From: Hathewaya proteolytica DSM 3090
Lineage (GTDB): Bacteria; Bacillota; Clostridia; Clostridiales; Clostridiaceae
Length of the DNA: 32,000 bases
Direction: 5' to 3'
Assembly: GCF_900142225.1 (NCBI RefSeq)
Contig: NZ_FRAD01000023.1
Coordinates: 1-32,000, forward strand
Part shown: piece after piece, positions 693-25,855 of the stretch
How the letters are laid out: each line of letters begins with the position of its first letter
Position numbering within the stretch: the stretch's first letter is position 1
Translations under genes and position numbers: made by a program
Notes under the pieces: model-generated
Databases searched by the model: none
Seen by the model: the letters and a program-made list of their open reading frames with translations, nothing else
Told to the model about the DNA's origin: nothing

Positions 693-714
693 AAAATACA
701 ATTTCATATAATCA

Positions 715-981
715 CAAGACGATGATAAGAAGAGTAGTGAATACAAAAGCATATAGAGAGCCAGGGTAGGTGAAAGCTGGTTGCGGAAGTATTTATGAAC
801 ATGGCCTTTGAGTCTGTTTCTTGAGCAAAACTTGTTAGAGAAACATGGTTTCAACCATTAAATTGAAAGCAGTCCCATGTATATGGTGCTGTTATTGAGG
901 CATATACGGCGACGTATATGCAAAGTTAGAGTGGTAACGTGTATATTCACCTCTATGGAATTATCCATAGGGGTTTTTTTA
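715..981 (+). promoter_or_regulatory. T-box leader (tRNA-Met sensing transcription attenuator) upstream of metG
   Basis: Stem I elements are present (AGAGA/AGTA-type motifs and the distal GGTGAAA loop at about 758-775). Candidate specifier is AUG at 795-797 followed by A. The T-box sequence caaAGTTAGAGTGGTAACGTG (922-941) resembles the consensus AAnnnGGGUGGUACCGCG. A terminator hairpin CCTCTATGG-aattat-CCATAGGGG plus T7 lies at 949-980, directly before the metG RBS. Confidence 0.8.
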
Positions 982-1008
982 TTGGAAAAATTAAAGGAGG
1001 AAATAATA

Positions 1009-2955
1009 ATGTGTAAAGGAAAACCGTTTTATATTACAACCCCAATTTATTATCCATCAGCAAAGCTCCATATAGGAAATACCTATACTACCATTGCGGC
1101 TGATGCAATTGCAAGGTATAAGAGACTTACTGGGTACGATGTAATGTTCTTAACTGGAACTGACGAGCACGGTCAAAAAATACAGAGGCTTGCAGAAAAT
1201 AAAGGTGTTACGCCAAAGGATTATGTGGATGAAATTGTAGATAGCATAAAAGAGCTATGGAAACTCATGAATGTCAGCTATGATAAGTTTATAAGAACCA
1301 CGGATTCATACCATGTGGAATCGGTAAAAAAAATATTCCAGAAATTTTACGAGCAAGGCGATATTTATAAAAGCTCTTATGAAGGATTATATTGTACGCC
1401 ATGTGAATCCTTCTGGACAGAGAGCCAACTTGTAGATGGAAAATGTCCTGATTGTGGAAGACCTGTGGAAAATGCAAAAGAAGAAGCGTATTTTTTCAAA
1501 ATGTCGAGATATGCACCTAGACTAATTGAATATATAGAAAGTCATCCTGATTTTATCCAGCCGGAATCTAGAAAAAATGAGATGCTGAACAATTTCTTAA
1601 AACCAGGATTGCAAGATCTTTGTGTTTCAAGAACTACTTTTGACTGGGGGATTCCTGTGGAATTCGATAAGGGTCATGTAGTTTATGTGTGGATAGATGC
1701 TCTATCAAATTATATATCAGCATTAGGTTATGAAAATGACAAAGAACAAATCATGGATAAGTATTGGCCTGCAGATGTTCATCTTATAGGAAAAGACATA
1801 TTGAGATTCCATACAATATATTGGCCAATTATGCTTATGGCTCTTGATTTGCCACTGCCAAAACATGTATTTGGCCATGGATGGCTTATGTTAGAAGATG
1901 GGAAAATGTCTAAATCTAAAGGAAATGTAGTTCAACCGGAATTGCTTGTGCAACATTTTGGAGTGGATGCAGTGAGATATTATCTTCTTCATGAAATACC
2001 TTTTGGAGCAGACGGTATATTTAACAATGAAATATTTATAAAGAAAACAAACTCCGATCTTGCAAATGACCTTGGAAATCTTGTTTCAAGAACTGTAACC
2101 ATGATCGACAAATATTTTGAAGGTGAGATACCAGGTCCAGGTGAGAAGCAAGCAATTGATGATGAACTGGTGAATTTAGCATTGGCGACTCCAGCAAAGG
2201 TTGACAAACAGATAGATTGCTTTAAGATACCATATGCATTGGATGAAATATGGGAATTAATAAGAAGGACTAACAAATATATAGATGAAACACAGCCATG
2301 GGTTCTTGGAAAAGATGAAAATTCTAAGAGCAGACTTGCTACAGTGTTGTATAATCTATCAGAATCCTTGAGATTTACATCTATTTTATTAAGTGCATTC
2401 TTGCCAGAAACCAGCTTAAAAATCAATGAGCAGCTTGGTATAAAAAATATTTCCTATGAAAGCTTACAAAGCTTTGATGGAACAGTGGCAGGAACCAAAG
2501 TTAATAAAAATGGAGTAATATTCCCAAGAATAGATGTGGAAGCAAAACTAGAAGAGTTAGGAAAAATATTAAATAAGCAAAAGGAATCAGCAGCCCAATG
2601 CAAAGAAAAGTTTCTTCCCCTAAAACCTGAAATCGATTTAGAGGATTTTCAGAAAATCGACCTTAGAATAGCAAAGGTTTTAGAATGCGAGACAGTTAAA
2701 AAAAGTGATAAGCTTTTAAAACTTAAAGTAGATATTGGCGGGGAAATAAAGCAGGTGGTTTCAGGAATTGCAAAATTTTATAAACCAGAAGAGTTAGTAG
2801 GTAAAAAGGTTATCATGGTAGTAAATCTAAAGCCTGTGAAGCTAAGAGGAGAAATCTCTGAGGGTATGATACTTTCAGCAGCGGCAGAAGATGATAGTAT
2901 TTTAAGTGTGACAACAGCTTTAAAAGATGTACCTTGTGGATTAATTGTTAGATAA
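1009..2955 (+). CDS. metG: Methionine--tRNA ligase with C-terminal Trbp111/EMAP-like tRNA-binding domain
   Basis: HIGN motif (KLHIGNTYT), KMSKS motif (GKMSKSKGN), zinc knuckle CTPC...CPDC, and a C-terminal DLRIAKVLECE...GEISEGMILSA domain. Start moved to the ATG at 1009, which sits 8 nt after AAAGGAGG (993-1000). The 877-1008 part of the ORF is the T-box leader. Confidence 0.97.
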   Translation: MCKGKPFYITTPIYYPSAKLHIGNTYTTIAADAIARYKRLTGYDVMFLTGTDEHGQKIQRLAENKGVTPKDYVDEIVDSIKELWKLMNVSYDKFIRTTDSYHVESVKKIFQKFYEQGDIYKSSYEGLYCTPCESFWTESQLVDGKCPDCGRPVENAKEEAYFFKMSRYAPRLIEYIESHPDFIQPESRKNEMLNNFLKPGLQDLCVSRTTFDWGIPVEFDKGHVVYVWIDALSNYISALGYENDKEQIMDKYWPADVHLIGKDILRFHTIYWPIMLMALDLPLPKHVFGHGWLMLEDGKMSKSKGNVVQPELLVQHFGVDAVRYYLLHEIPFGADGIFNNEIFIKKTNSDLANDLGNLVSRTVTMIDKYFEGEIPGPGEKQAIDDELVNLALATPAKVDKQIDCFKIPYALDEIWELIRRTNKYIDETQPWVLGKDENSKSRLATVLYNLSESLRFTSILLSAFLPETSLKINEQLGIKNISYESLQSFDGTVAGTKVNKNGVIFPRIDVEAKLEELGKILNKQKESAAQCKEKFLPLKPEIDLEDFQKIDLRIAKVLECETVKKSDKLLKLKVDIGGEIKQVVSGIAKFYKPEELVGKKVIMVVNLKPVKLRGEISEGMILSAAAEDDSILSVTTALKDVPCGLIVR

Positions 2956-2972
2956 GATGAATTTGTTTATTA

Positions 2973-3004
2973 TAGTGCTCTATCAGAAGAATGATAGAGC
3001 ACTA
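2973..3004 (+). other. Perfect 13-bp stem-loop between metG and rnmV (possible processing or partial-termination signal)
   Basis: tagtgctctatca-gaagaa-tgatagagcacta. No T-run follows, so this is not a classical intrinsic terminator. Confidence 0.45.
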
Positions 3005-3024
3005 AATGGAAGAGGGAAATTAAA

Positions 3025-3567
3025 TTGATAAAAGAAGTAATTGTAGTTGAAGGACGAGATGACATAACGGCAGTGAAAAGGGCTGTAGATGCTGAAATCA
3101 TTGCAGTGGGTGGATTTGGAATAAATAAAGCTATTATAGATAAAATAAAATCTGCACAGGAGCGGTGTGGCGTTATTGTGCTTACAGACCCTGATTTTGC
3201 AGGAGAAAAAATAAGGCGTATAATAGCAAAGCGAGTTCCGGGAATAAAACACGCATATATTGGCAGGGATGAAGGAACAAAAAATGGAGACATAGGAGTA
3301 GAAAATGCTGTCCCCCAGGCCATTCTTAGGGCATTAAATGGCGCAAAGTGCGAAACTATTGACAAAAACGAATTTTATGATATAGACGATATGATATATT
3401 TTAAACTTACAGGATGTAGCGACTCCAAGAGGAGAAGAGAGTTGCTTGGAAAAAAACTTGGTATAGGGTATGGAAATTGTAATCAAATAATAACAAGATT
3501 AAATAACTATGGAGTGGACAGAATAGAATTTATTGAGGCTATAGAGTACATAGAAAAGAATATATAG
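3025..3567 (+). CDS. rnmV: Ribonuclease M5 (5S rRNA maturase, Toprim domain)
   Basis: N-terminal Toprim signature VIVVEGRDD...VLTDPDFAGEKIR. Length is 180 aa. TTG start with purine-rich GGAAGAGGG upstream. The conserved rnmV-ksgA pairing of Firmicutes is present. Confidence 0.88.
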   Translation: MIKEVIVVEGRDDITAVKRAVDAEIIAVGGFGINKAIIDKIKSAQERCGVIVLTDPDFAGEKIRRIIAKRVPGIKHAYIGRDEGTKNGDIGVENAVPQAILRALNGAKCETIDKNEFYDIDDMIYFKLTGCSDSKRRRELLGKKLGIGYGNCNQIITRLNNYGVDRIEFIEAIEYIEKNI

Positions 3568-3619
3568 CACAATATTTTTAGAAATCTAAAATAATGAAAT
3601 TCTAATGGAGGAAATATGC

Positions 3620-4465
3620 ATGGAAAAACTAACTACAAGAGAAGTTGTGGCTAGAAATGAATTTAAATTTTCAAAAGCCTTAGGACAAAACTTCCTTACG
3701 GATGAAAAGGTCTTAAAGGATATTGTGGATGCTGGAGAAATTAGTGAAAATGATCTTGTTATTGAAATAGGGCCAGGTGTGGGTACTCTCACAAGAGAAC
3801 TTCTAAAAAAGGCTAAAAAAGTTATAGCTATTGAACTTGATGAAAGGCTAATAAATATCCTTAAGGAAGAACTTTCAGATTTCCCTAATTTTCAACTTAT
3901 ACATATGGATGCTCTAAAGGTGGACTTTAATTCTTTGATTGGTGAAGAAACTAGTGTTAAAATTGTGGCCAACTTGCCATACTACGTAACAACCCCAATA
4001 ATAACAAGGTTGTTAAATGAAAGATACAATTTTAAATCCCTTACAATAATGATACAAAAAGAAGTTGCAGAGAGAATAGCTGCAGATGCCAATAGTAAAG
4101 AGTATGGGGCTTTGTCTTTACTTGTTCAATACCATTGCAATGCAAAGATTGTAAGACACGTTTCACCTAATTGTTTTCTACCAAGGCCTAAAGTAGATTC
4201 TATTGTTATTAAACTTGATAAATTAGATAAACCTAGGGTAAAAGTTGAAAAGGAAGATTTGTTTTTTAAGGTAATTAGAGCAGCCTTCAATATGAGAAGG
4301 AAAACCTTATGGAATGCACTTAAACCTATGGGATTACCAAAAGAACGCATGGAAAAGGCTTTTGAATTAAGCAACATAGATCCATCTAGGAGAGGAGAAA
4401 CTCTTAGTATAGAAGAATTTGCTAGCTTATCAGACAATATACTTAAGCAGAGTGTTGATTTTTAA
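3620..4465 (+). CDS. rsmA: 16S rRNA (adenine1518-N6/adenine1519-N6)-dimethyltransferase
   Basis: KsgA/Erm family motifs: LGQNFL, SAM-binding [12 protein letters not shown], and [10 protein letters not shown]. The ATG at 3620 lies 8 nt after GGAGG (3607-3611). The alternative in-frame ATG at 3605 overlaps that RBS. Confidence 0.95.
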
Positions 4466-4545
4466 AAAAATTTTATATTAATAAGGCATTTTTTTATAGT
4501 CTCTTCATATATTATAGGGAATAAGTAGTATATGGAGGGACTAAT

Positions 4546-5910
4546 TTGGCTTCTAGAAAAAGTTATTCAAGATATTTTATAATTTTACAAGAGGATGAAA
4601 AGGGGTATGTATTAGATAAGGGTAAAAGCTCTTCGGGGTACGTTAAGTTAGAAAGAAAAAATGATAAGTGCAAAGTTTCTTGTTACGCTCAAAATATTAA
4701 TCCTAGCATGGGACCTTATTACGTGGTTCTTATATGCAAAAATGAAAGTCCAGGTAGAATGGTTGTACTAAAAAAAGTTGACGTAGATGCTCAGGGGAAA
4801 GTAGATACTACGTGTGAATATGATGCTGGAAATATTGCAGGGTCCAAAATGTCTATGCAAAATATAATAGGGGCGACTTTAGGCAAAATTGCAGACGGCA
4901 ACGTAATTCCGCTATTAACAGGATTTCTTACTTCTGAGGCACCAAAAAACTGGAAAGAATATGAAATAATTAATGAAAAAAAGACTATTGAAAACGAAGT
5001 AAAGACGCAAGAGGAAATAAAGAAGCAGGATGAAATAAAGCAACAAGAGGAAATAAAGAAGCAGGATGAAATAAAGAAGCAGGATGAAATAAAGCAACAA
5101 GAAGAGATAAAGCAGCAAGAGGAGATAAAACCAAAAGAAGAAATAATTAAGGAAGAAGTGGCTAAACCAGAAGAAGAAATTAAGCCAGATGAAACAGAAA
5201 AACCAAAAGAAACAGAACAACCAAAAGAAGTAGAACAACCAAAAGAAACAGAACAACCAGAGGAAATGGTACAACCACAAGACGAAATTAAACCGGCAGA
5301 AGAAGACGGTAGTATTTCAGGGGAAGTATTTGATAAATACGAAAAAAATGTAGAAAATGTTGTAAAAAATAAAGAAGGCAAGGATTATAGGGGGAATGAA
5401 GACCCTAAACGAGAATTCTACACTCTTCAGGAACATATATTGAGAGAACACAATCTTAGTGATAAAGAGACCTTAGAAGACATGGATATCCCAACAGGAA
5501 GAGTTGGAGCTTATTTTAAAAGTCTTGTATATGAATTCGAAGAGATAAGGGAAATGGGGGAAGAGGTGCCTAATTGTAGATGGTATAAAATACCTGTAAA
5601 TTCCCTAGAAGACCTCTACGACTCCTCACAATTTAACAGATATACCATAATATATTACCCTATGATTTGTTATCATTCATTTATAAAACCATATAAGCAT
5701 TTTTGCATAGGATATCAGTGCGATAAACAGGGCAAACTGCAATATGTTGTATATGCTATACCTGGCATGAGGGATAGAGATAACCAGCCTTATGGAGGTA
5801 AAACGGGATTTGTAACCTGGATTCCTACTAACAAAAATCAGGGCTATGGATATTGGATCATGTTCTATGATGTAAAAAAGTGTACAACTGTTGTTCCTAT
5901 AAAAAGATAA
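4546..5910 (+). CDS. Uncharacterised protein: N-terminal domain, acidic/lysine-rich hexapeptide-repeat linker, and a Tyr/Trp-rich C-terminal domain
   Basis: Long ORF with a TTG start 7 nt after GGAGG (4534-4538). No enzyme motif recognised. The central region is low-complexity E/K/Q/P. Confidence 0.7.
   Translation: MASRKSYSRYFIILQEDEKGYVLDKGKSSSGYVKLERKNDKCKVSCYAQNINPSMGPYYVVLICKNESPGRMVVLKKVDVDAQGKVDTTCEYDAGNIAGSKMSMQNIIGATLGKIADGNVIPLLTGFLTSEAPKNWKEYEIINEKKTIENEVKTQEEIKKQDEIKQQEEIKKQDEIKKQDEIKQQEEIKQQEEIKPKEEIIKEEVAKPEEEIKPDETEKPKETEQPKEVEQPKETEQPEEMVQPQDEIKPAEEDGSISGEVFDKYEKNVENVVKNKEGKDYRGNEDPKREFYTLQEHILREHNLSDKETLEDMDIPTGRVGAYFKSLVYEFEEIREMGEEVPNCRWYKIPVNSLEDLYDSSQFNRYTIIYYPMICYHSFIKPYKHFCIGYQCDKQGKLQYVVYAIPGMRDRDNQPYGGKTGFVTWIPTNKNQGYGYWIMFYDVKKCTTVVPIKR
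5005..5310 (+). repeat. 17 consecutive in-frame 18-bp (hexapeptide) tandem repeats inside the 4546..5910 CDS
   Basis: Units read directly from the sequence: TQEEIK, KQDEIK, QQEEIK, KQDEIK, KQDEIK, QQEEIK, QQEEIK, then PKEEII, KEEVAK, PEEEIK, PDETEK, PKETEQ, PKEVEQ, PKETEQ, PEEMVQ, PQDEIK, PAEEDG. Several DNA units are identical (aagcaggatgaaataaag occurs 3 times). Confidence 0.9.
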
Positions 5911-5998: not shown

Positions 5999-6577
5999 AT
6001 GGAAAAAAATAATGAAAGCAGCATGAGCACTGTTTTAATATTATGGTGTCTTGTAGTTATAATGTGCTTTAGCGGTCAATTTTTTTACGGAAAAATAAAG
6101 CCTGCATCTTCGGTGAAAAATGCAAAGGAAGTCGTACAGTATGATTTTTGGAATGATAAAGGCCAAAATAAACATTGCGATTTTCCGGTTCATTGGGAAG
6201 TTGATGAGGATAAAAATAAAGAAACAAATAACGTGAGATTCTATGGGACTTTTAAGAGCCAAGCAGAAAATTTATATGGTTACATTAAAATATTTAACAA
6301 TAAGGATGATTTTCATGGGCTGATTAATAAAGAATGCATGGCTTTATCTCAAAATCACAATGTGTACCATATTAATAATGATAAAATAGAAAATAATAAT
6401 GTAAAAGTTACATACTGTACTGTGGATGTATATAACATGAAAACATATCACGAAAGTTATTTTATAAATAATAAATGTGGAAATGTGGAAATTTCATTTT
6501 CAAAAGCTTATGGTGGATTTGACAAAGAAGATAGAAATAATATAAATACAGTTCTGGAAAGCATAGTGGATAAATAA
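5999..6577 (+). CDS. Uncharacterised N-terminally membrane-anchored protein
   Basis: ATG lies 12 nt after GGAGG (5982-5986). There is one N-terminal hydrophobic helix (STVLILWCLVVIMCFSGQFF), then an Asn/Lys-rich soluble part. No family recognised. Confidence 0.6.
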   Translation: MEKNNESSMSTVLILWCLVVIMCFSGQFFYGKIKPASSVKNAKEVVQYDFWNDKGQNKHCDFPVHWEVDEDKNKETNNVRFYGTFKSQAENLYGYIKIFNNKDDFHGLINKECMALSQNHNVYHINNDKIENNNVKVTYCTVDVYNMKTYHESYFINNKCGNVEISFSKAYGGFDKEDRNNINTVLESIVDK

Positions 6578-17779: not shown

Positions 17780-18847
17780 GTGCTTTATGCATTAATACTA
17801 GCGGGTGGAAAAGGAACCAGACTTTATCCTCTATCTAGAAATGAAAATCCAAAGCAATTTCTAAATGTAATAAATGATAAAACTTTTTTAGAAAATACCA
17901 TTGAAAGAATTAGTCCCATTGTTCCTAGGGAAAATATATTCATTGTAACTAATGAACTATATTATGATAAAATATGTGGTATTTTACCTTATATAAATAA
18001 ATCTAATATTTTTATAGAACCATACAATAAAGAGACCGCCACTTGTATAGGCTTTTCTGCTATAAAACTTCTAAAGAGAGATAATGATGCCACAATGATT
18101 GTGCTGCCATCAGATCATCATATTGAAAATGTGAAGGAGTTCCAAGATTGTGTAAATCAAGCTGTATCCATTGCTACAAAGCGACGAGGGATTGTTACTA
18201 TGGGTGTGAATCCAGACAGGCCAGAGACCGGGTATGGATATATTCAAATGGGTGATAGAGTGGATAGCAATATCCCAACCTATAGGGTAGAAAGGTTTTT
18301 AGAAAAACCTAATGTGGAAGTGGCAAAGGATCTACTTTGCAAGGGGGATTATTTGTGGAATAGTGGTATGTTTGTTTGGAGAGCTGATGTATTTTTAAGG
18401 GAAATGGAAAAATATCTTCCCAAAATGTATAAAAGACTTATGATGATATATGAAAGCATCGATTCAGACAAAGAAAGTGAAGTTACAAAAGAGCAATATG
18501 AACTTATAGAGGGAATATCTGTGGATTTTGGTATTATGCAAAAGACGAGAAAAGCATATGTGGTGAAGTGTTCATTTCCCTGGGATGATATTGGAAGCTA
18601 TGCTGCTTTGGGCAGGTTTATGAAGCAGTTTAGGGGCAACAATATAAAAGGGAAGGTGTATATGGAAGATAGCGAAGACTGCTCTGTATTTGCCGATAAA
18701 AGGTTGGTAATAGGGTTTGGTGTGAGTAAGCTGGTCATTGTTGATACTGGTGACGTAATACTTGTTATGAATAAAGACAAGGATCAGGAAATTAAGCATC
18801 TTGTAACGAAATTAAAGGAAGAAAGCGATTTTGAGGAATTTCTATAA
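17780..18847 (+). CDS. manC: Mannose-1-phosphate guanylyltransferase (nucleotidyltransferase domain only, no fused isomerase)
   Basis: N-terminal ILAGGKGTRLYPLS nucleotidyltransferase motif, LPSDHHI, GYGYIQ, and FLEKPN...WNSGMFVW. GTG start 9 nt after AGAGG. Confidence 0.85.
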   Translation: MLYALILAGGKGTRLYPLSRNENPKQFLNVINDKTFLENTIERISPIVPRENIFIVTNELYYDKICGILPYINKSNIFIEPYNKETATCIGFSAIKLLKRDNDATMIVLPSDHHIENVKEFQDCVNQAVSIATKRRGIVTMGVNPDRPETGYGYIQMGDRVDSNIPTYRVERFLEKPNVEVAKDLLCKGDYLWNSGMFVWRADVFLREMEKYLPKMYKRLMMIYESIDSDKESEVTKEQYELIEGISVDFGIMQKTRKAYVVKCSFPWDDIGSYAALGRFMKQFRGNNIKGKVYMEDSEDCSVFADKRLVIGFGVSKLVIVDTGDVILVMNKDKDQEIKHLVTKLKEESDFEEFL

Positions 18848-18876
18848 TATTAATATAGCGAAATATGCAGATATTA

Positions 18877-18913
18877 AAAGTGCTGGGGCTAGTAAAAACG
18901 CTTCAGCACTTTT
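18877..18913. terminator. Bidirectional terminator between manC and the convergent HesB-like gene
   Basis: 10-bp perfect outer stem aaaagtgctg / cagcactttt, with A/T runs forming both flanks. Confidence 0.75.
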
Positions 18914-18928
18914 AAGTACATATTTAGA

Positions 18929-19258
18929 TTAGTGGCAATGAGAACAATTTCCGCAACAACCACCCTCAGGTGCTATTTCTGGCTCTATGGAAAGACCACC
19001 GTAGCCGTTTTCTTCTCCTGATTTTATTGTAAGTTCTCCAAACTCTTCATTGATATCCTTATCCACAAGGAAAGTTGTGTCGTTGACAACTACTGCATTG
19101 TCGTTTTCTTTTTGCTCATCTAGAACAAGACCAAAAGCTGGACCACTGCATCCCATGCCAGAGATGACTATTCTAACAACCTTTGTCTCGATATTATTGT
19201 CTATTAAAACCTGCTGGAATTCCTTGTACGCTCCGTCGCTGATATTTACAAATGCCAT
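18929..19258 (-). CDS. HesB/IscA-like small protein, Cys form, with a Cys/Gly/His-rich C-terminal tail
   Basis: 109 aa. Core is RIVISGMGCSGPAFGLVLDE (an IscA/HesB-type G-C-x-G motif). Tail is EGGCCGNCSHCH. RBS GGAGG lies 9 nt upstream of the ATG. Confidence 0.85.
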   Translation of the reverse strand: MAFVNISDGAYKEFQQVLIDNNIETKVVRIVISGMGCSGPAFGLVLDEQKENDNAVVVNDTTFLVDKDINEEFGELTIKSGEENGYGGLSIEPEIAPEGGCCGNCSHCH

Positions 19259-19405: not shown

Positions 19406-19449
19406 TAAAAAACTGCCCTAAGCATATAATCTATGCTAGGGCAGTTTTA
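19406..19449 (-). terminator. Rho-independent terminator of the Sec-form HesB-like gene
   Basis: About 15-bp stem aactgccctaagcata / tatgctagggcagtt with one bulged A. On the minus strand it is followed by T5 (plus-strand aaaaa at 19407-19411). It lies 24 nt past the TAA stop. Confidence 0.8.
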
Positions 19450-19472: not shown

Positions 19473-19799
19473 TTAGTGACAGCTAGAGCAGCTAGAGCAT
19501 CCGCCACCTACAGAAGTTGCAGGCTCAATTGAAAGCCCTCCATATCCGTTTTCTTCACCAGATTTAATTGTAAGAACACCAAATTCATTAGTGATATCTT
19601 TTTCTACTAAGAATTTTGTTTCGTTGATTTCTGTAACATTGTCATTTTCTTTTTGTTCATCCAGAACAAGGCCGAAGCTAGGGCCACTTCATCCCATGCC
19701 AGATATAACTATTCTTACTGTATTTGTTTCAATATTATTATCAGTTAAAACTTTCTCGAATTCTTTATAAGCTGAATCGCTCATTTTTACAAAACTCAT
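19473..19799 (-). CDS. HesB/IscA-like selenoprotein candidate: in-frame TGA (19689-19691) read as Sec37; absent from the supplied ORF track
   Basis: Hand translation of the minus strand gives MSFVKMSDSAYKEFEKVLTDNNIETNTVRIVISGMG-U-SGPSFGLVLDEQKENDNVTEINETKFLVEKDITNEFGVLTIKSGEENGYGGLSIEPATSVGGGCSSCSSCH*. ATG at 19799 lies 8 nt after GGAGG (19812-19808). TAA stop at 19475-19473. 72 of the first 93 residues match the neighbour 18929..19258, and the TGA aligns exactly with its Cys37 (TGC at 19148-19150). Confidence 0.8.
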
Positions 19800-19879
19800 T
19801 TCAAATACCTCCTTTGTATTGAAATAATAAATAGATAAACAATAAGCTATTTAAAATATCTATAATTGTTTATAGTAAT

Positions 19880-19980: not shown

Positions 19981-20808
19981 ATGAGTAAAAGTATATACAA
20001 ATTAGCTCCTATATTTAAGGGAAAGCCATGGGGATATGAAAAATGGATATTATGTTGTCACAAGGAAGGTGAATCCATTGTCCAGAATGATGATGTGCAG
20101 AACAAGAGTTTGTGGAGTCACCTAGATTACAAGCCATTTCCCCTTATGATAAAAATAATAAGAGCTGAAGAAAATCTATCCATACAAGTTCACCCAGATG
20201 ACTTGTATGCTAAAGAAGTTGAAAATGATACGGGCAAAAATGAATTTTGGTATATAATAGATGCCAAACAAGATGCTGCAGTTTACTGTGGGTTAAAGGA
20301 AAAAATGGATAAAGAACAGCTTAAGGACATTCTAAAACAGGGGACTATAGAAAACTATCTTAACAAGATAGAGGTTAAAGCTGGAGATTATATATATATA
20401 CCAAGTGGAGTAATTCACGCCATTGGAAGAAATGTCACCTTATTAGAAGTACAGAAGAATAGCAATATAACCTATAGAATATACGATTACAACAGGGGAC
20501 GACAGTTGGATTTGCAAAAGGCTCTGGATGTAGTAGATATGCGTAAAAATATCCATGTGGAAAAGAAAGAGGACTTTAAGTTTTTCACCAGTGAAAATTT
20601 TATTATAAAAAAAGAGAGGTTAGATGTCATCGCATCTTACTTCAATAGAGACAATTTCGAAGTTGTTTATATAAAGCAGGGTGTAGGAGTGATTTATAGT
20701 CATGAGGAGCAAATAGAAGTGTGTAGTGGAGATACTATATATATAGAAAAAGGAACATTCTACAATATTCAAGGAGATATGGACTATTTTCATATAATAT
20801 GTAAGTAA
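19981..20808 (+). CDS. manA: Class I mannose-6-phosphate isomerase (cupin type)
   Basis: PMI type I zinc-ligand motifs LSIQVHPDD, NEFWYII and VIHAIG. Short Firmicute-type form (275 aa). Confidence 0.82.
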   Translation: MSKSIYKLAPIFKGKPWGYEKWILCCHKEGESIVQNDDVQNKSLWSHLDYKPFPLMIKIIRAEENLSIQVHPDDLYAKEVENDTGKNEFWYIIDAKQDAAVYCGLKEKMDKEQLKDILKQGTIENYLNKIEVKAGDYIYIPSGVIHAIGRNVTLLEVQKNSNITYRIYDYNRGRQLDLQKALDVVDMRKNIHVEKKEDFKFFTSENFIIKKERLDVIASYFNRDNFEVVYIKQGVGVIYSHEEQIEVCSGDTIYIEKGTFYNIQGDMDYFHIICK

Positions 20809-22965: not shown

Positions 22966-23163
22966 ATGAAGTTGGCTTTGAATTTTAAAAACGGAAAGAA
23001 AAGAATATTTACCACTGAGGAGAGCGACCAAATAGTTAAAGGTTTGAATTATATGAAGGTAATACAGTTCTTCATGGGAAATAAAGAAATAAAGGGTACC
23101 CTGAATGTATTAGGCAAACAGATACCCGTAAGTGATATTCACTCCATTGAGTTTATATTGTAA
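22966..23163 (+). CDS. Small hypothetical protein (65 aa)
   Basis: The ATG at 22966 lies 8 nt after GGGAG (22953-22957). No recognisable motif. The 3' end overlaps the convergent rimI 3' end by 25 nt. Confidence 0.35.
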   Translation: MKLALNFKNGKKRIFTTEESDQIVKGLNYMKVIQFFMGNKEIKGTLNVLGKQIPVSDIHSIEFIL

Positions 23164-23594
23164 TTCCACATAATAACAGCATTTTCTATGGGATTAGAGT
23201 AGAAATTTTTTCTCAACCCACAACTTACAAAACCGGATTTTTCATAAAGTGAAATGGCGGCTGTGTTGGACTCTCGAACCTCAAGAGTCATAGCATCAGC
23301 CCCTTCACCTTTACATATACTTACAAGAGAATTTAATATCTTTGTGCCTACACCACATCTTCTAGCTTCCTTAGCTACAGCTATATTTGTTACATTTCCT
23401 TCGCCATATATAATCCACATACCGCCAAAGCCCAAAACAGTTCCGCTTTGGTCTTTGCATACCACGTATTTAGCCTTATTGTTGTGAAGTTCAGATTTCA
23501 AACTCTCCATACTCCACGGATTTTTCAAACTTTGCAAATTTATATTATAGACATCATTGATATCTTTATCCGTCATATATTCAATATTGTGCAT
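23139..23594 (-). CDS. rimI: Ribosomal-protein-alanine N-acetyltransferase (GNAT)
   Basis: GNAT acetyl-CoA motif VAKEARRCGVGTKIL. Length is 151 aa. The start overlaps the tsaB stop (TAATG) in the conserved tsaE-tsaB-rimI order. Confidence 0.85.
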   Translation of the reverse strand: MHNIEYMTDKDINDVYNINLQSLKNPWSMESLKSELHNNKAKYVVCKDQSGTVLGFGGMWIIYGEGNVTNIAVAKEARRCGVGTKILNSLVSICKGEGADAMTLEVRESNTAAISLYEKSGFVSCGLRKNFYSNPIENAVIMWNYNINSME

Positions 23595-25779: not shown

Positions 25780-25855
25780 AGGGGTATAGCTCAATCGGTA
25801 GAGTAGCGGTCTCCAAAACCGTTGGTTCCGGGTTCAAGTCCTCGTGCCCCTGCCA
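25780..25855 (+). tRNA. trnW: tRNA-Trp (anticodon CCA), with encoded 3' CCA
   Basis: 7-bp acceptor stem AGGGGTA/TGCCCCT, discriminator G, then CCA. Anticodon stem GCGGT/ACCGT with loop CTCCAAA. T-arm GGGTTCAAGTCC. 76 nt with a short variable loop. Closely resembles the Bacillus tRNA-Trp as I remember it. Confidence 0.93.

Follow-up and report, generated by a model that had tools for sequence, protein, structure and literature searches.

The window analysed here is a stretch of 32,000 nucleotides of Hathewaya proteolytica DSM 3090 (contig NZ_FRAD01000023.1, positions 1 to 32,000, forward strand). Two HesB-like genes lie in tandem on its minus strand, the upstream one with an in-frame TGA at codon 37 (hereafter the Sec gene) and the downstream one with a cysteine codon at the equivalent position (the Cys paralogue). 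Two plus-strand genes flank the pair, a mannose-1-phosphate guanylyltransferase-like gene at 17780-18847 and a type I phosphomannose isomerase (PMI)/cupin gene at 19981-20808, and a PMI-like gene also adjoins the tandem pair in locus L085. The features of the window are as follows.

19808..19812, minus strand: Shine-Dalgarno GGAGG of the Sec gene, 8-nt spacer to the ATG, read from the sequence
19473..19799, minus strand: predicted HesB-like selenoprotein CDS, 108 residues with Sec at position 37, from translation, TIGR01911 score and dN/dS
19689..19691, minus strand: in-frame TGA, predicted Sec codon 37 in the motif U-S-G-P, from the aligned codon in relatives
19653..19669, minus strand: proposed SECIS hairpin UUGUUC-UGGAU-GAACAA, within the codons for L-V-L-D-E-Q, from comparison of relatives
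19407..19444, minus strand: intrinsic terminator behind the Sec gene, with a G+C-rich stem of 12 bp and then TTTTTT
18929..19258, minus strand: tandem Cys paralogue, 109 aa, Cys37 encoded by TGC at 19150-19148, with its own GGAGG at 19272-19268 and its own terminator
19112..19128, minus strand: SECIS-like relic UUGUUC-UAGAU-GAGCAA in the Cys paralogue, loop G replaced by A
18874..18915, minus strand: terminator-like hairpin after the Cys paralogue, -17.3 kcal/mol, z = -5.0
713-957, plus strand: T-box leader, 105.9 bits, ahead of and overlapping the listed start of a 692-aa frame at 877-2955
25780-25855, plus strand: tRNA-Trp (CCA)

The Sec gene begins with an ATG at 19799-19797, runs through 36 sense codons to the TGA at 19691-19689 and continues in the same frame for another 71 sense codons to a TAA at 19475-19473. 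The initial annotation had described this layout, from the GGAGG and the 8-nt spacer to the TAA, and every element of it was found again at the same positions. The terminator, which had been called strong, folds with -24.3 kcal/mol (19444-19413 plus the T run; z = -6.5 as compared with shuffles). A sigma-70 promoter scan upstream of the gene gave no convincing site above background. In the ORF list of the window the Sec gene appears solely as its 36-aa N-terminal piece. Downstream of the TGA there is no in-frame ATG, GTG or TTG, so standard gene callers drop the remainder, and the six-frame track is empty there. With a G+C content of 33.7%, about 8% of random codons are stops and the probability of 71 open codons in a row is ~0.003. 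This value, together with a dN/dS of 0.08 relative to the paralogue, excludes a chance origin of the open frame beyond the TGA. A scan of the window for frames extended through a single TGA returned 13, and only the HesB-like gene resembles a protein.

The product of the Sec gene is identical to the Cys paralogue at 80 of 109 positions in a BLASTP alignment (73%). Over the core, the first 93 residues, the count is 73/93 when U is scored as Cys and 72/93 when the U/C position is left out, the latter being the hand count of the initial annotation. The TGA stands opposite Cys37 of the paralogue (TGC at 19150-19148) in the motif ISGMG-[U/C]-SGP, which bears out the alignment proposed earlier. The paralogue is deposited as GenBank SHK33616.1 / RefSeq WP_072904249.1 of Hathewaya proteolytica DSM 3090. 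The name given to SHK33616.1, which carries TGC, is "HesB-like selenoprotein"; the TGA gene sits 215 nt upstream.

What kind of protein is encoded? Translated with U as C, the Sec gene scores 93.1 bits against TIGR01911 (HesB_rel_seleno; cut-off 66.35) over model positions 1-92 of 92, and the Cys paralogue scores 95.2 bits. TIGR01911 is thus the dedicated TIGRFAMs model that the initial annotation had mentioned without an accession. The Sec protein stays under the cut-off in two other models, NF038090 (IscA_HesB_Se; 69.8 bits, cut-off 85) and the general IscA model TIGR00049 (35.9 bits, cut-off 58.8), and it has no match at E <= 1 in Pfam, Fe-S_biosyn included. A profile built from 21 relatives matches PDB 1nwb and 2apn, with position 37 aligned to the cysteine of GGCSG. 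The AF2 model of the Sec protein has a pLDDT of 87 and a disordered tail from about residue 98. In Foldseek comparisons it matches the IscA/SufA structures 1s98, 1x0g and 2d2a with TM values of 0.6-0.67 (0.5-0.67 when 1nwb is included) at probability 1.0. The Sec protein is thus modelled as having the IscA/SufA fold. The profile and fold matches place U37 on the first conserved cysteine, in line with the claim that it occupies the IscA/HesB-type ligand position.

The comparison with the A-type Fe-S carriers IscA, SufA and ErpA brings out both the likeness and the divergence. The predicted fold is the same, and position 37 corresponds to their first conserved cluster-ligand cysteine. However, the cysteine would be replaced by Sec, the C-terminal C-G-C gives way to C-x2-C-x2-C-H, TIGR00049 is reached below its cut-off and Pfam gives no match. 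The classical set of three cysteine ligands, a central one plus the C-terminal C-G-C, is therefore not what the Sec protein carries: its central residue is the predicted Sec and its tail reads C-S-S-C-S-S-C-H, with the C-x2-C-x2-C pattern invariant in the 21 relatives. Taken together, fold model and motif suggest that a metal or Fe-S site may be built from Sec37 and the tail cysteines.

HesB-like proteins are among the standard prokaryotic selenoprotein families, and because of this the gene in the window is a further member of a selenoprotein family known for some 20 years and no new kind. The family, which the initial annotation had placed in prokaryotic selenoproteome surveys, is indeed present in those of 2005-2006 (PMC1088965, PMC1794560). 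The Sargasso Sea survey of 2005 includes it (PMC1088965), and Zhang et al. 2006 reported 11 HesB-like members with Sec-to-Cys conversions and gave a Clostridium perfringens sequence in their additional file 4 (PMC1794560). A 2026 review tabulates HesB-like with TIGR01911 and the motif UxGP (PMC13188914), with which the U-S-G-P of the window protein agrees. The C. perfringens HesB-like selenoprotein (PMC1794560) shares 48% identity with the window protein over 103 residues in a gap-free alignment, has Sec at the same position in G-U-x-G-P and the same VLDEQ, and ends identically in GGCSSCSSCH. Unlike this published member, the window gene belongs to another species, stands in tandem with a Cys paralogue and is seemingly unannotated in NCBI. 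For the Methanococcus maripaludis HesB-like protein MMJJ_08070, an archaeal protein likened to ours by family name, selenium incorporation was demonstrated by mutagenesis and 75Se labelling, and a disruption mutant had no nitrogen-fixation defect (PMC11097638). A literature search on Hathewaya proteolytica / Clostridium proteolyticum found nothing on selenium.

The codon usage at position 37 was examined across the family. A scan with one genome per species gave 79 loci, to which tblastn with TGA allowed as Cys was applied, and the codon aligned to position 37 was inspected. Of the 84 distinct relatives, 59 have TGA there and 25 have TGC or TGT, with no other codon seen, which answers the question raised earlier of whether orthologues carry TGA or TGC. 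Homologues with the TGA form occur across several phyla, and nearly all homologue alignments run through to the C-terminus. TGA forms with the same hairpin (described below) were also met on contigs labelled Bacteroidota and Campylobacterota, namely L075 and L076 (a Lutibacter sp. B2 contig) and L071 (a Halarcobacter MAG); contamination, mis-binning or horizontal transfer could account for their presence there.

A single base separates the TGA from the TGC of the paralogue, which could speak for a sequencing or assembly error in which the true codon is TGC. However, two other runs assembled in Logan (SRR4096576 and SRR33868088) have the identical TGA, giving three assemblies with the window, and a TGA reproduced in independent assemblies is not a read error. 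The gene also has the hairpin specific to TGA forms with its loop G present, whereas the TGC copy has an A there. We regard such an error as having next to no chance of being the explanation.

Another possibility is that the UGA is read as Trp, Gly or Cys without selenium, either by near-cognate read-through or by an altered code. Many homologues in the public collection are in fact called with W at this position, under table 4. In other systems the Sec pathway is known to insert Cys at UGA when selenium is short, which would lend this possibility some support. The window argues otherwise. Under table 11 its genes read as long, intact frames; of the 26 main frames checked, 25 stop at TAA or TAG and one (23139..23594) at TGA, and the genome uses the standard code. 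The Trp codon TGG occurs at position 37 in 0/84 distinct relatives, the codon being always TGA or TGY, and simple read-through would need no SECIS-type hairpin. A standard amino acid at position 37 is accordingly a slim prospect.

The selective constraint on both sides of the TGA was compared by dN/dS. Between the Sec gene and its own Cys paralogue the values are 0.106 for codons 1-36 and 0.079 for codons 38-97. Relative to L085, the closest TGA orthologue and one with the same PMI-side synteny as the window, they are 0.255 for codons 1-36 and 0.11 for codons 38-108. Purifying selection acts on the codons past the TGA no less strongly than on those ahead of it. Two outcomes that the initial annotation had set against its own proposal, a TGC on resequencing and decay downstream of codon 37, were not observed: TGA is present in the three assemblies and dN/dS is 0.08-0.11 past the TGA.

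These values bear on the idea that the Sec gene is a pseudogene, be it a duplicated Cys form that a nonsense mutation (TGC to TGA) inactivated or a relic from before the species lost Sec decoding. With every relative compared, the Sec gene has a dS of about 1 or higher, and a loss of function that happened very recently would therefore be invisible in the ratios. Standard callers find just 36 codons. The state of the Sec machinery can also be read in favour of this idea, as the window and a further 10 kb or so of the contig showed neither selA, selB, selD nor tRNA-Sec, and no SelA named for H. proteolytica was among the best 120 relatives of the H. massiliensis SelA. Against it stand the TGA at the same codon in 59 distinct homologues from several phyla, the 71 open codons after it with their dN/dS of 0.08-0.11, an intact Shine-Dalgarno sequence and terminator, a hairpin equal to the TGA-form consensus base for base, and a second strain that carries the identical Sec gene. 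On balance a pseudogene is improbable.

Searches for the Sec machinery were also carried beyond the contig. SelA is present in H. massiliensis and H. histolytica, as found by protein searches with the SelA of C. perfringens and of H. massiliensis, and two more candidates (P0115 and P0101) stem from other samples. At least ten species with the TGA form also have an annotated SelA, for example C. fallax, C. tarantellae, C. collagenovorans and H. massiliensis. When E. coli SelA, SelB and SelD were compared by tblastn with all fetched loci, matches were found only in Atribacterota.

If the UGA is recoded, a signal for recoding should be sought downstream of it. A bacterial SECIS is marked by a small stem-loop that follows the UGA and carries a guanosine in its small apical loop (PMC1088965). 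The initial annotation had suggested folding the RNA 3' of the TGA, and the outcome was divided: single-sequence folding past the UGA performed no better than shuffles (z = -0.8), while a hairpin conserved in the TGA forms did emerge, the evidence for it being comparative. Across the 59 TGA forms the 17-nt consensus UUG[U/C]UC-UGGAU-GA[A/G]CAA is near-invariant, whereas the 25 Cys forms are variable, and the hairpin of the window equals the TGA-form consensus base for base. Its stem has 6 bp and its 5-nt loop contains GG; 19 nt lie between the UGA and the stem, which starts 22 nt after the U. All six pairs form in 50/59 TGA forms and in 3/25 Cys forms. The GG of the loop is invariant among the 59 TGA forms, 50 of which read UGGAU there, in contrast with the Cys forms, which have no fixed loop. 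The constraint extends to synonymous positions: third-position information reaches 2.0 bits in the 59 TGA forms at both the GUU/GCU and the CUG codons, as compared with 0.73 and 0.50 bits, respectively, in the 25 Cys forms. Paired cells make up 96.6% in TGA forms and 32-64% when the partners are slid. The fourth pair is compensatory among TGA forms (U-A in 30, C-G in 26, one wobble and one break), though this is a single covarying pair in a short stem (4-6 bp) and the kinship of the sequences inflates such counts.

A GGCC...GGCC hairpin directly after the UGA was considered as the SECIS and rejected, as it is not conserved in relatives. No SECIS family nor other credible RNA family in Rfam matches around the TGA. 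A hairpin of comparably small size, again with GG in its loop, lies about 14 nt past the UGA of the selD gene in a related Clostridium (L092). The M. maripaludis HesB-like gene, being archaeal, has its SECIS in the untranslated region and not within the CDS. With bacterial SECIS elements the proposed hairpin shares its location inside the CDS after the UGA and a small loop with an invariant GG; it differs from them in being very short, with 6 bp and a loop of 5 nt, in its sequence conservation across phyla and in matching no Rfam model. Judged from these alignments, the conserved hairpin of the TGA forms fits a bacterial SECIS element.

The Cys paralogue holds a trace of the same structure. 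Its SECIS-like stem is kept while the loop reads UAGAU for UGGAU, and on this ground the sequence suggests that the Cys paralogue descends from a Sec ancestor. SECIS-like relics of this kind have been described for Cys forms derived from Sec forms in the 2006 survey (PMC1794560). Tandem TGA+TGY pairs of the HesB-like family occur in at least nine other genomes, H. massiliensis among them. Methanogens have pairs of Sec and Cys isoenzymes (Fru/Frc, Vhu/Vhc) that are switched by selenium supply. The likeness to the window lies in a Sec gene and a Cys isogene for one protein in one genome, and by analogy a selenium-dependent isoform switch may operate between the two genes of the window.

Given the intact frame, a hairpin that equals the consensus exactly and the identical gene in a second strain, we conclude with a probability of about 0.88 that the locus is a working, monocistronic HesB-like selenoprotein gene of the TIGR01911 family, encoding 108 residues in H. 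proteolytica. The selenoprotein with a Sec/Cys pair put forward in the initial annotation has thus gained support from a passed TIGR01911 cut-off, TGA or TGY in 84/84 relatives, a hairpin confined to TGA forms and purifying selection. Mechanistically, UGA codon 37 would be recoded as selenocysteine, with SelB and Sec-tRNA(Sec) binding the UUGUUC-UGGAU-GAACAA hairpin as the ribosome reaches the UGA. In the protein, Sec37 would stand in for the first cluster-ligand cysteine and the C-x2-C-x2-C tail for C-G-C, and the Cys paralogue would be a selenium-independent isoform from a Sec ancestor. The analysis shows the gene structure, the TGA/TGY pair, the conserved hairpin, purifying selection, membership of the family and the fold; from these we infer the binding by SelB, the insertion of selenium in H. 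proteolytica, the ligand role of Sec37 and the isoform switch.

Then, what would such a protein do? The IscA/SufA fold, the ligand position of Sec37 and the C-x2-C-x2-C tail make metal or Fe-S handling the most likely biochemical role, as judged from modelled fold and motif. The likeliest job would be to bind or pass on a metal or Fe-S centre that has selenium among its ligands, or to serve in a related chalcogen-redox step. The neighbourhoods of TGA-form genes point in part elsewhere. In Atribacterota, selA-selB-selD lie directly upstream of the TGA-form gene on the same strand, as in the following two loci; L072 and L078 have the same arrangement.

L077: selA, selB and selD at ~750-5010, TGA-form gene at 6001-6297
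L080: selA, selB and selD at ~700-5015, TGA-form gene at 6001-6294

This arrangement may link the HesB-like family to the Sec pathway. In seven Tissierellales-type loci (L056, L057, L060, L061, L065, L067 and L074), the immediate upstream neighbours of the TGA-form gene encode a CcdA/DsbD-like membrane protein and a TlpA-like thioredoxin (WCGYC). They share its strand and lie about 1-2 kb ahead of the match at 6001, an arrangement that hints at a thiol-redox rather than an Fe-S role. The Clostridium loci show housekeeping synteny only (LeuRS, a MoxR-like ATPase and a VWA protein on the other strand) and are uninformative. From these neighbours one could propose that the family is no Fe-S carrier but a selenium- or thiol-handling partner, in the Sec pathway or in envelope thiol-redox, with the tandem pair as a selenium-responsive switch. 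We consider this proposal unlikely and retain metal or Fe-S handling as the preferred role.

The annotation state of the family was followed in the protein collection. For the Sec gene it holds two entries, both from Logan, one the 36-residue fragment and the other a 108-residue call with Trp37 that results from translating the TGA with table 4. No NCBI protein for the Sec gene is in this collection, which may not store U-containing proteins, so that a RefSeq selenoprotein record may exist. As far as the collection shows, the gene seems to be unannotated in NCBI, as had been suspected. Elsewhere in the family, NCBI holds 68-residue "hypothetical protein" entries (MFNLVLDEQ...; P0025-P0027, and L026 from 6109 onwards in Clostridium sp. 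CS001). P0025-P0027 are C-terminal fragments of TGA-form genes called from an internal GTG just past the TGA, and the 68-residue entries are a systematic misannotation of the HesB-like family. One further entry, P0004 (a Logan contig of 1395 bp), is identical to the window Sec protein over its first 53 residues and resembles P0011 in the remainder; it is either a chimeric metagenome assembly or the product of recombination between family members.

The practical value of the finding lies chiefly in annotation, in that a very probable selenoprotein gene is absent from the protein sets examined for the H. proteolytica genome. The 17-nt signature UUGYUC-UGGAU-GARCAA, 19 nt after the UGA, could serve to recover such genes automatically. 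For the biology of the family, the tandem Sec/Cys pair in a culturable Clostridium would be a handy system in which to ask what an IscA-like scaffold gains from selenium.
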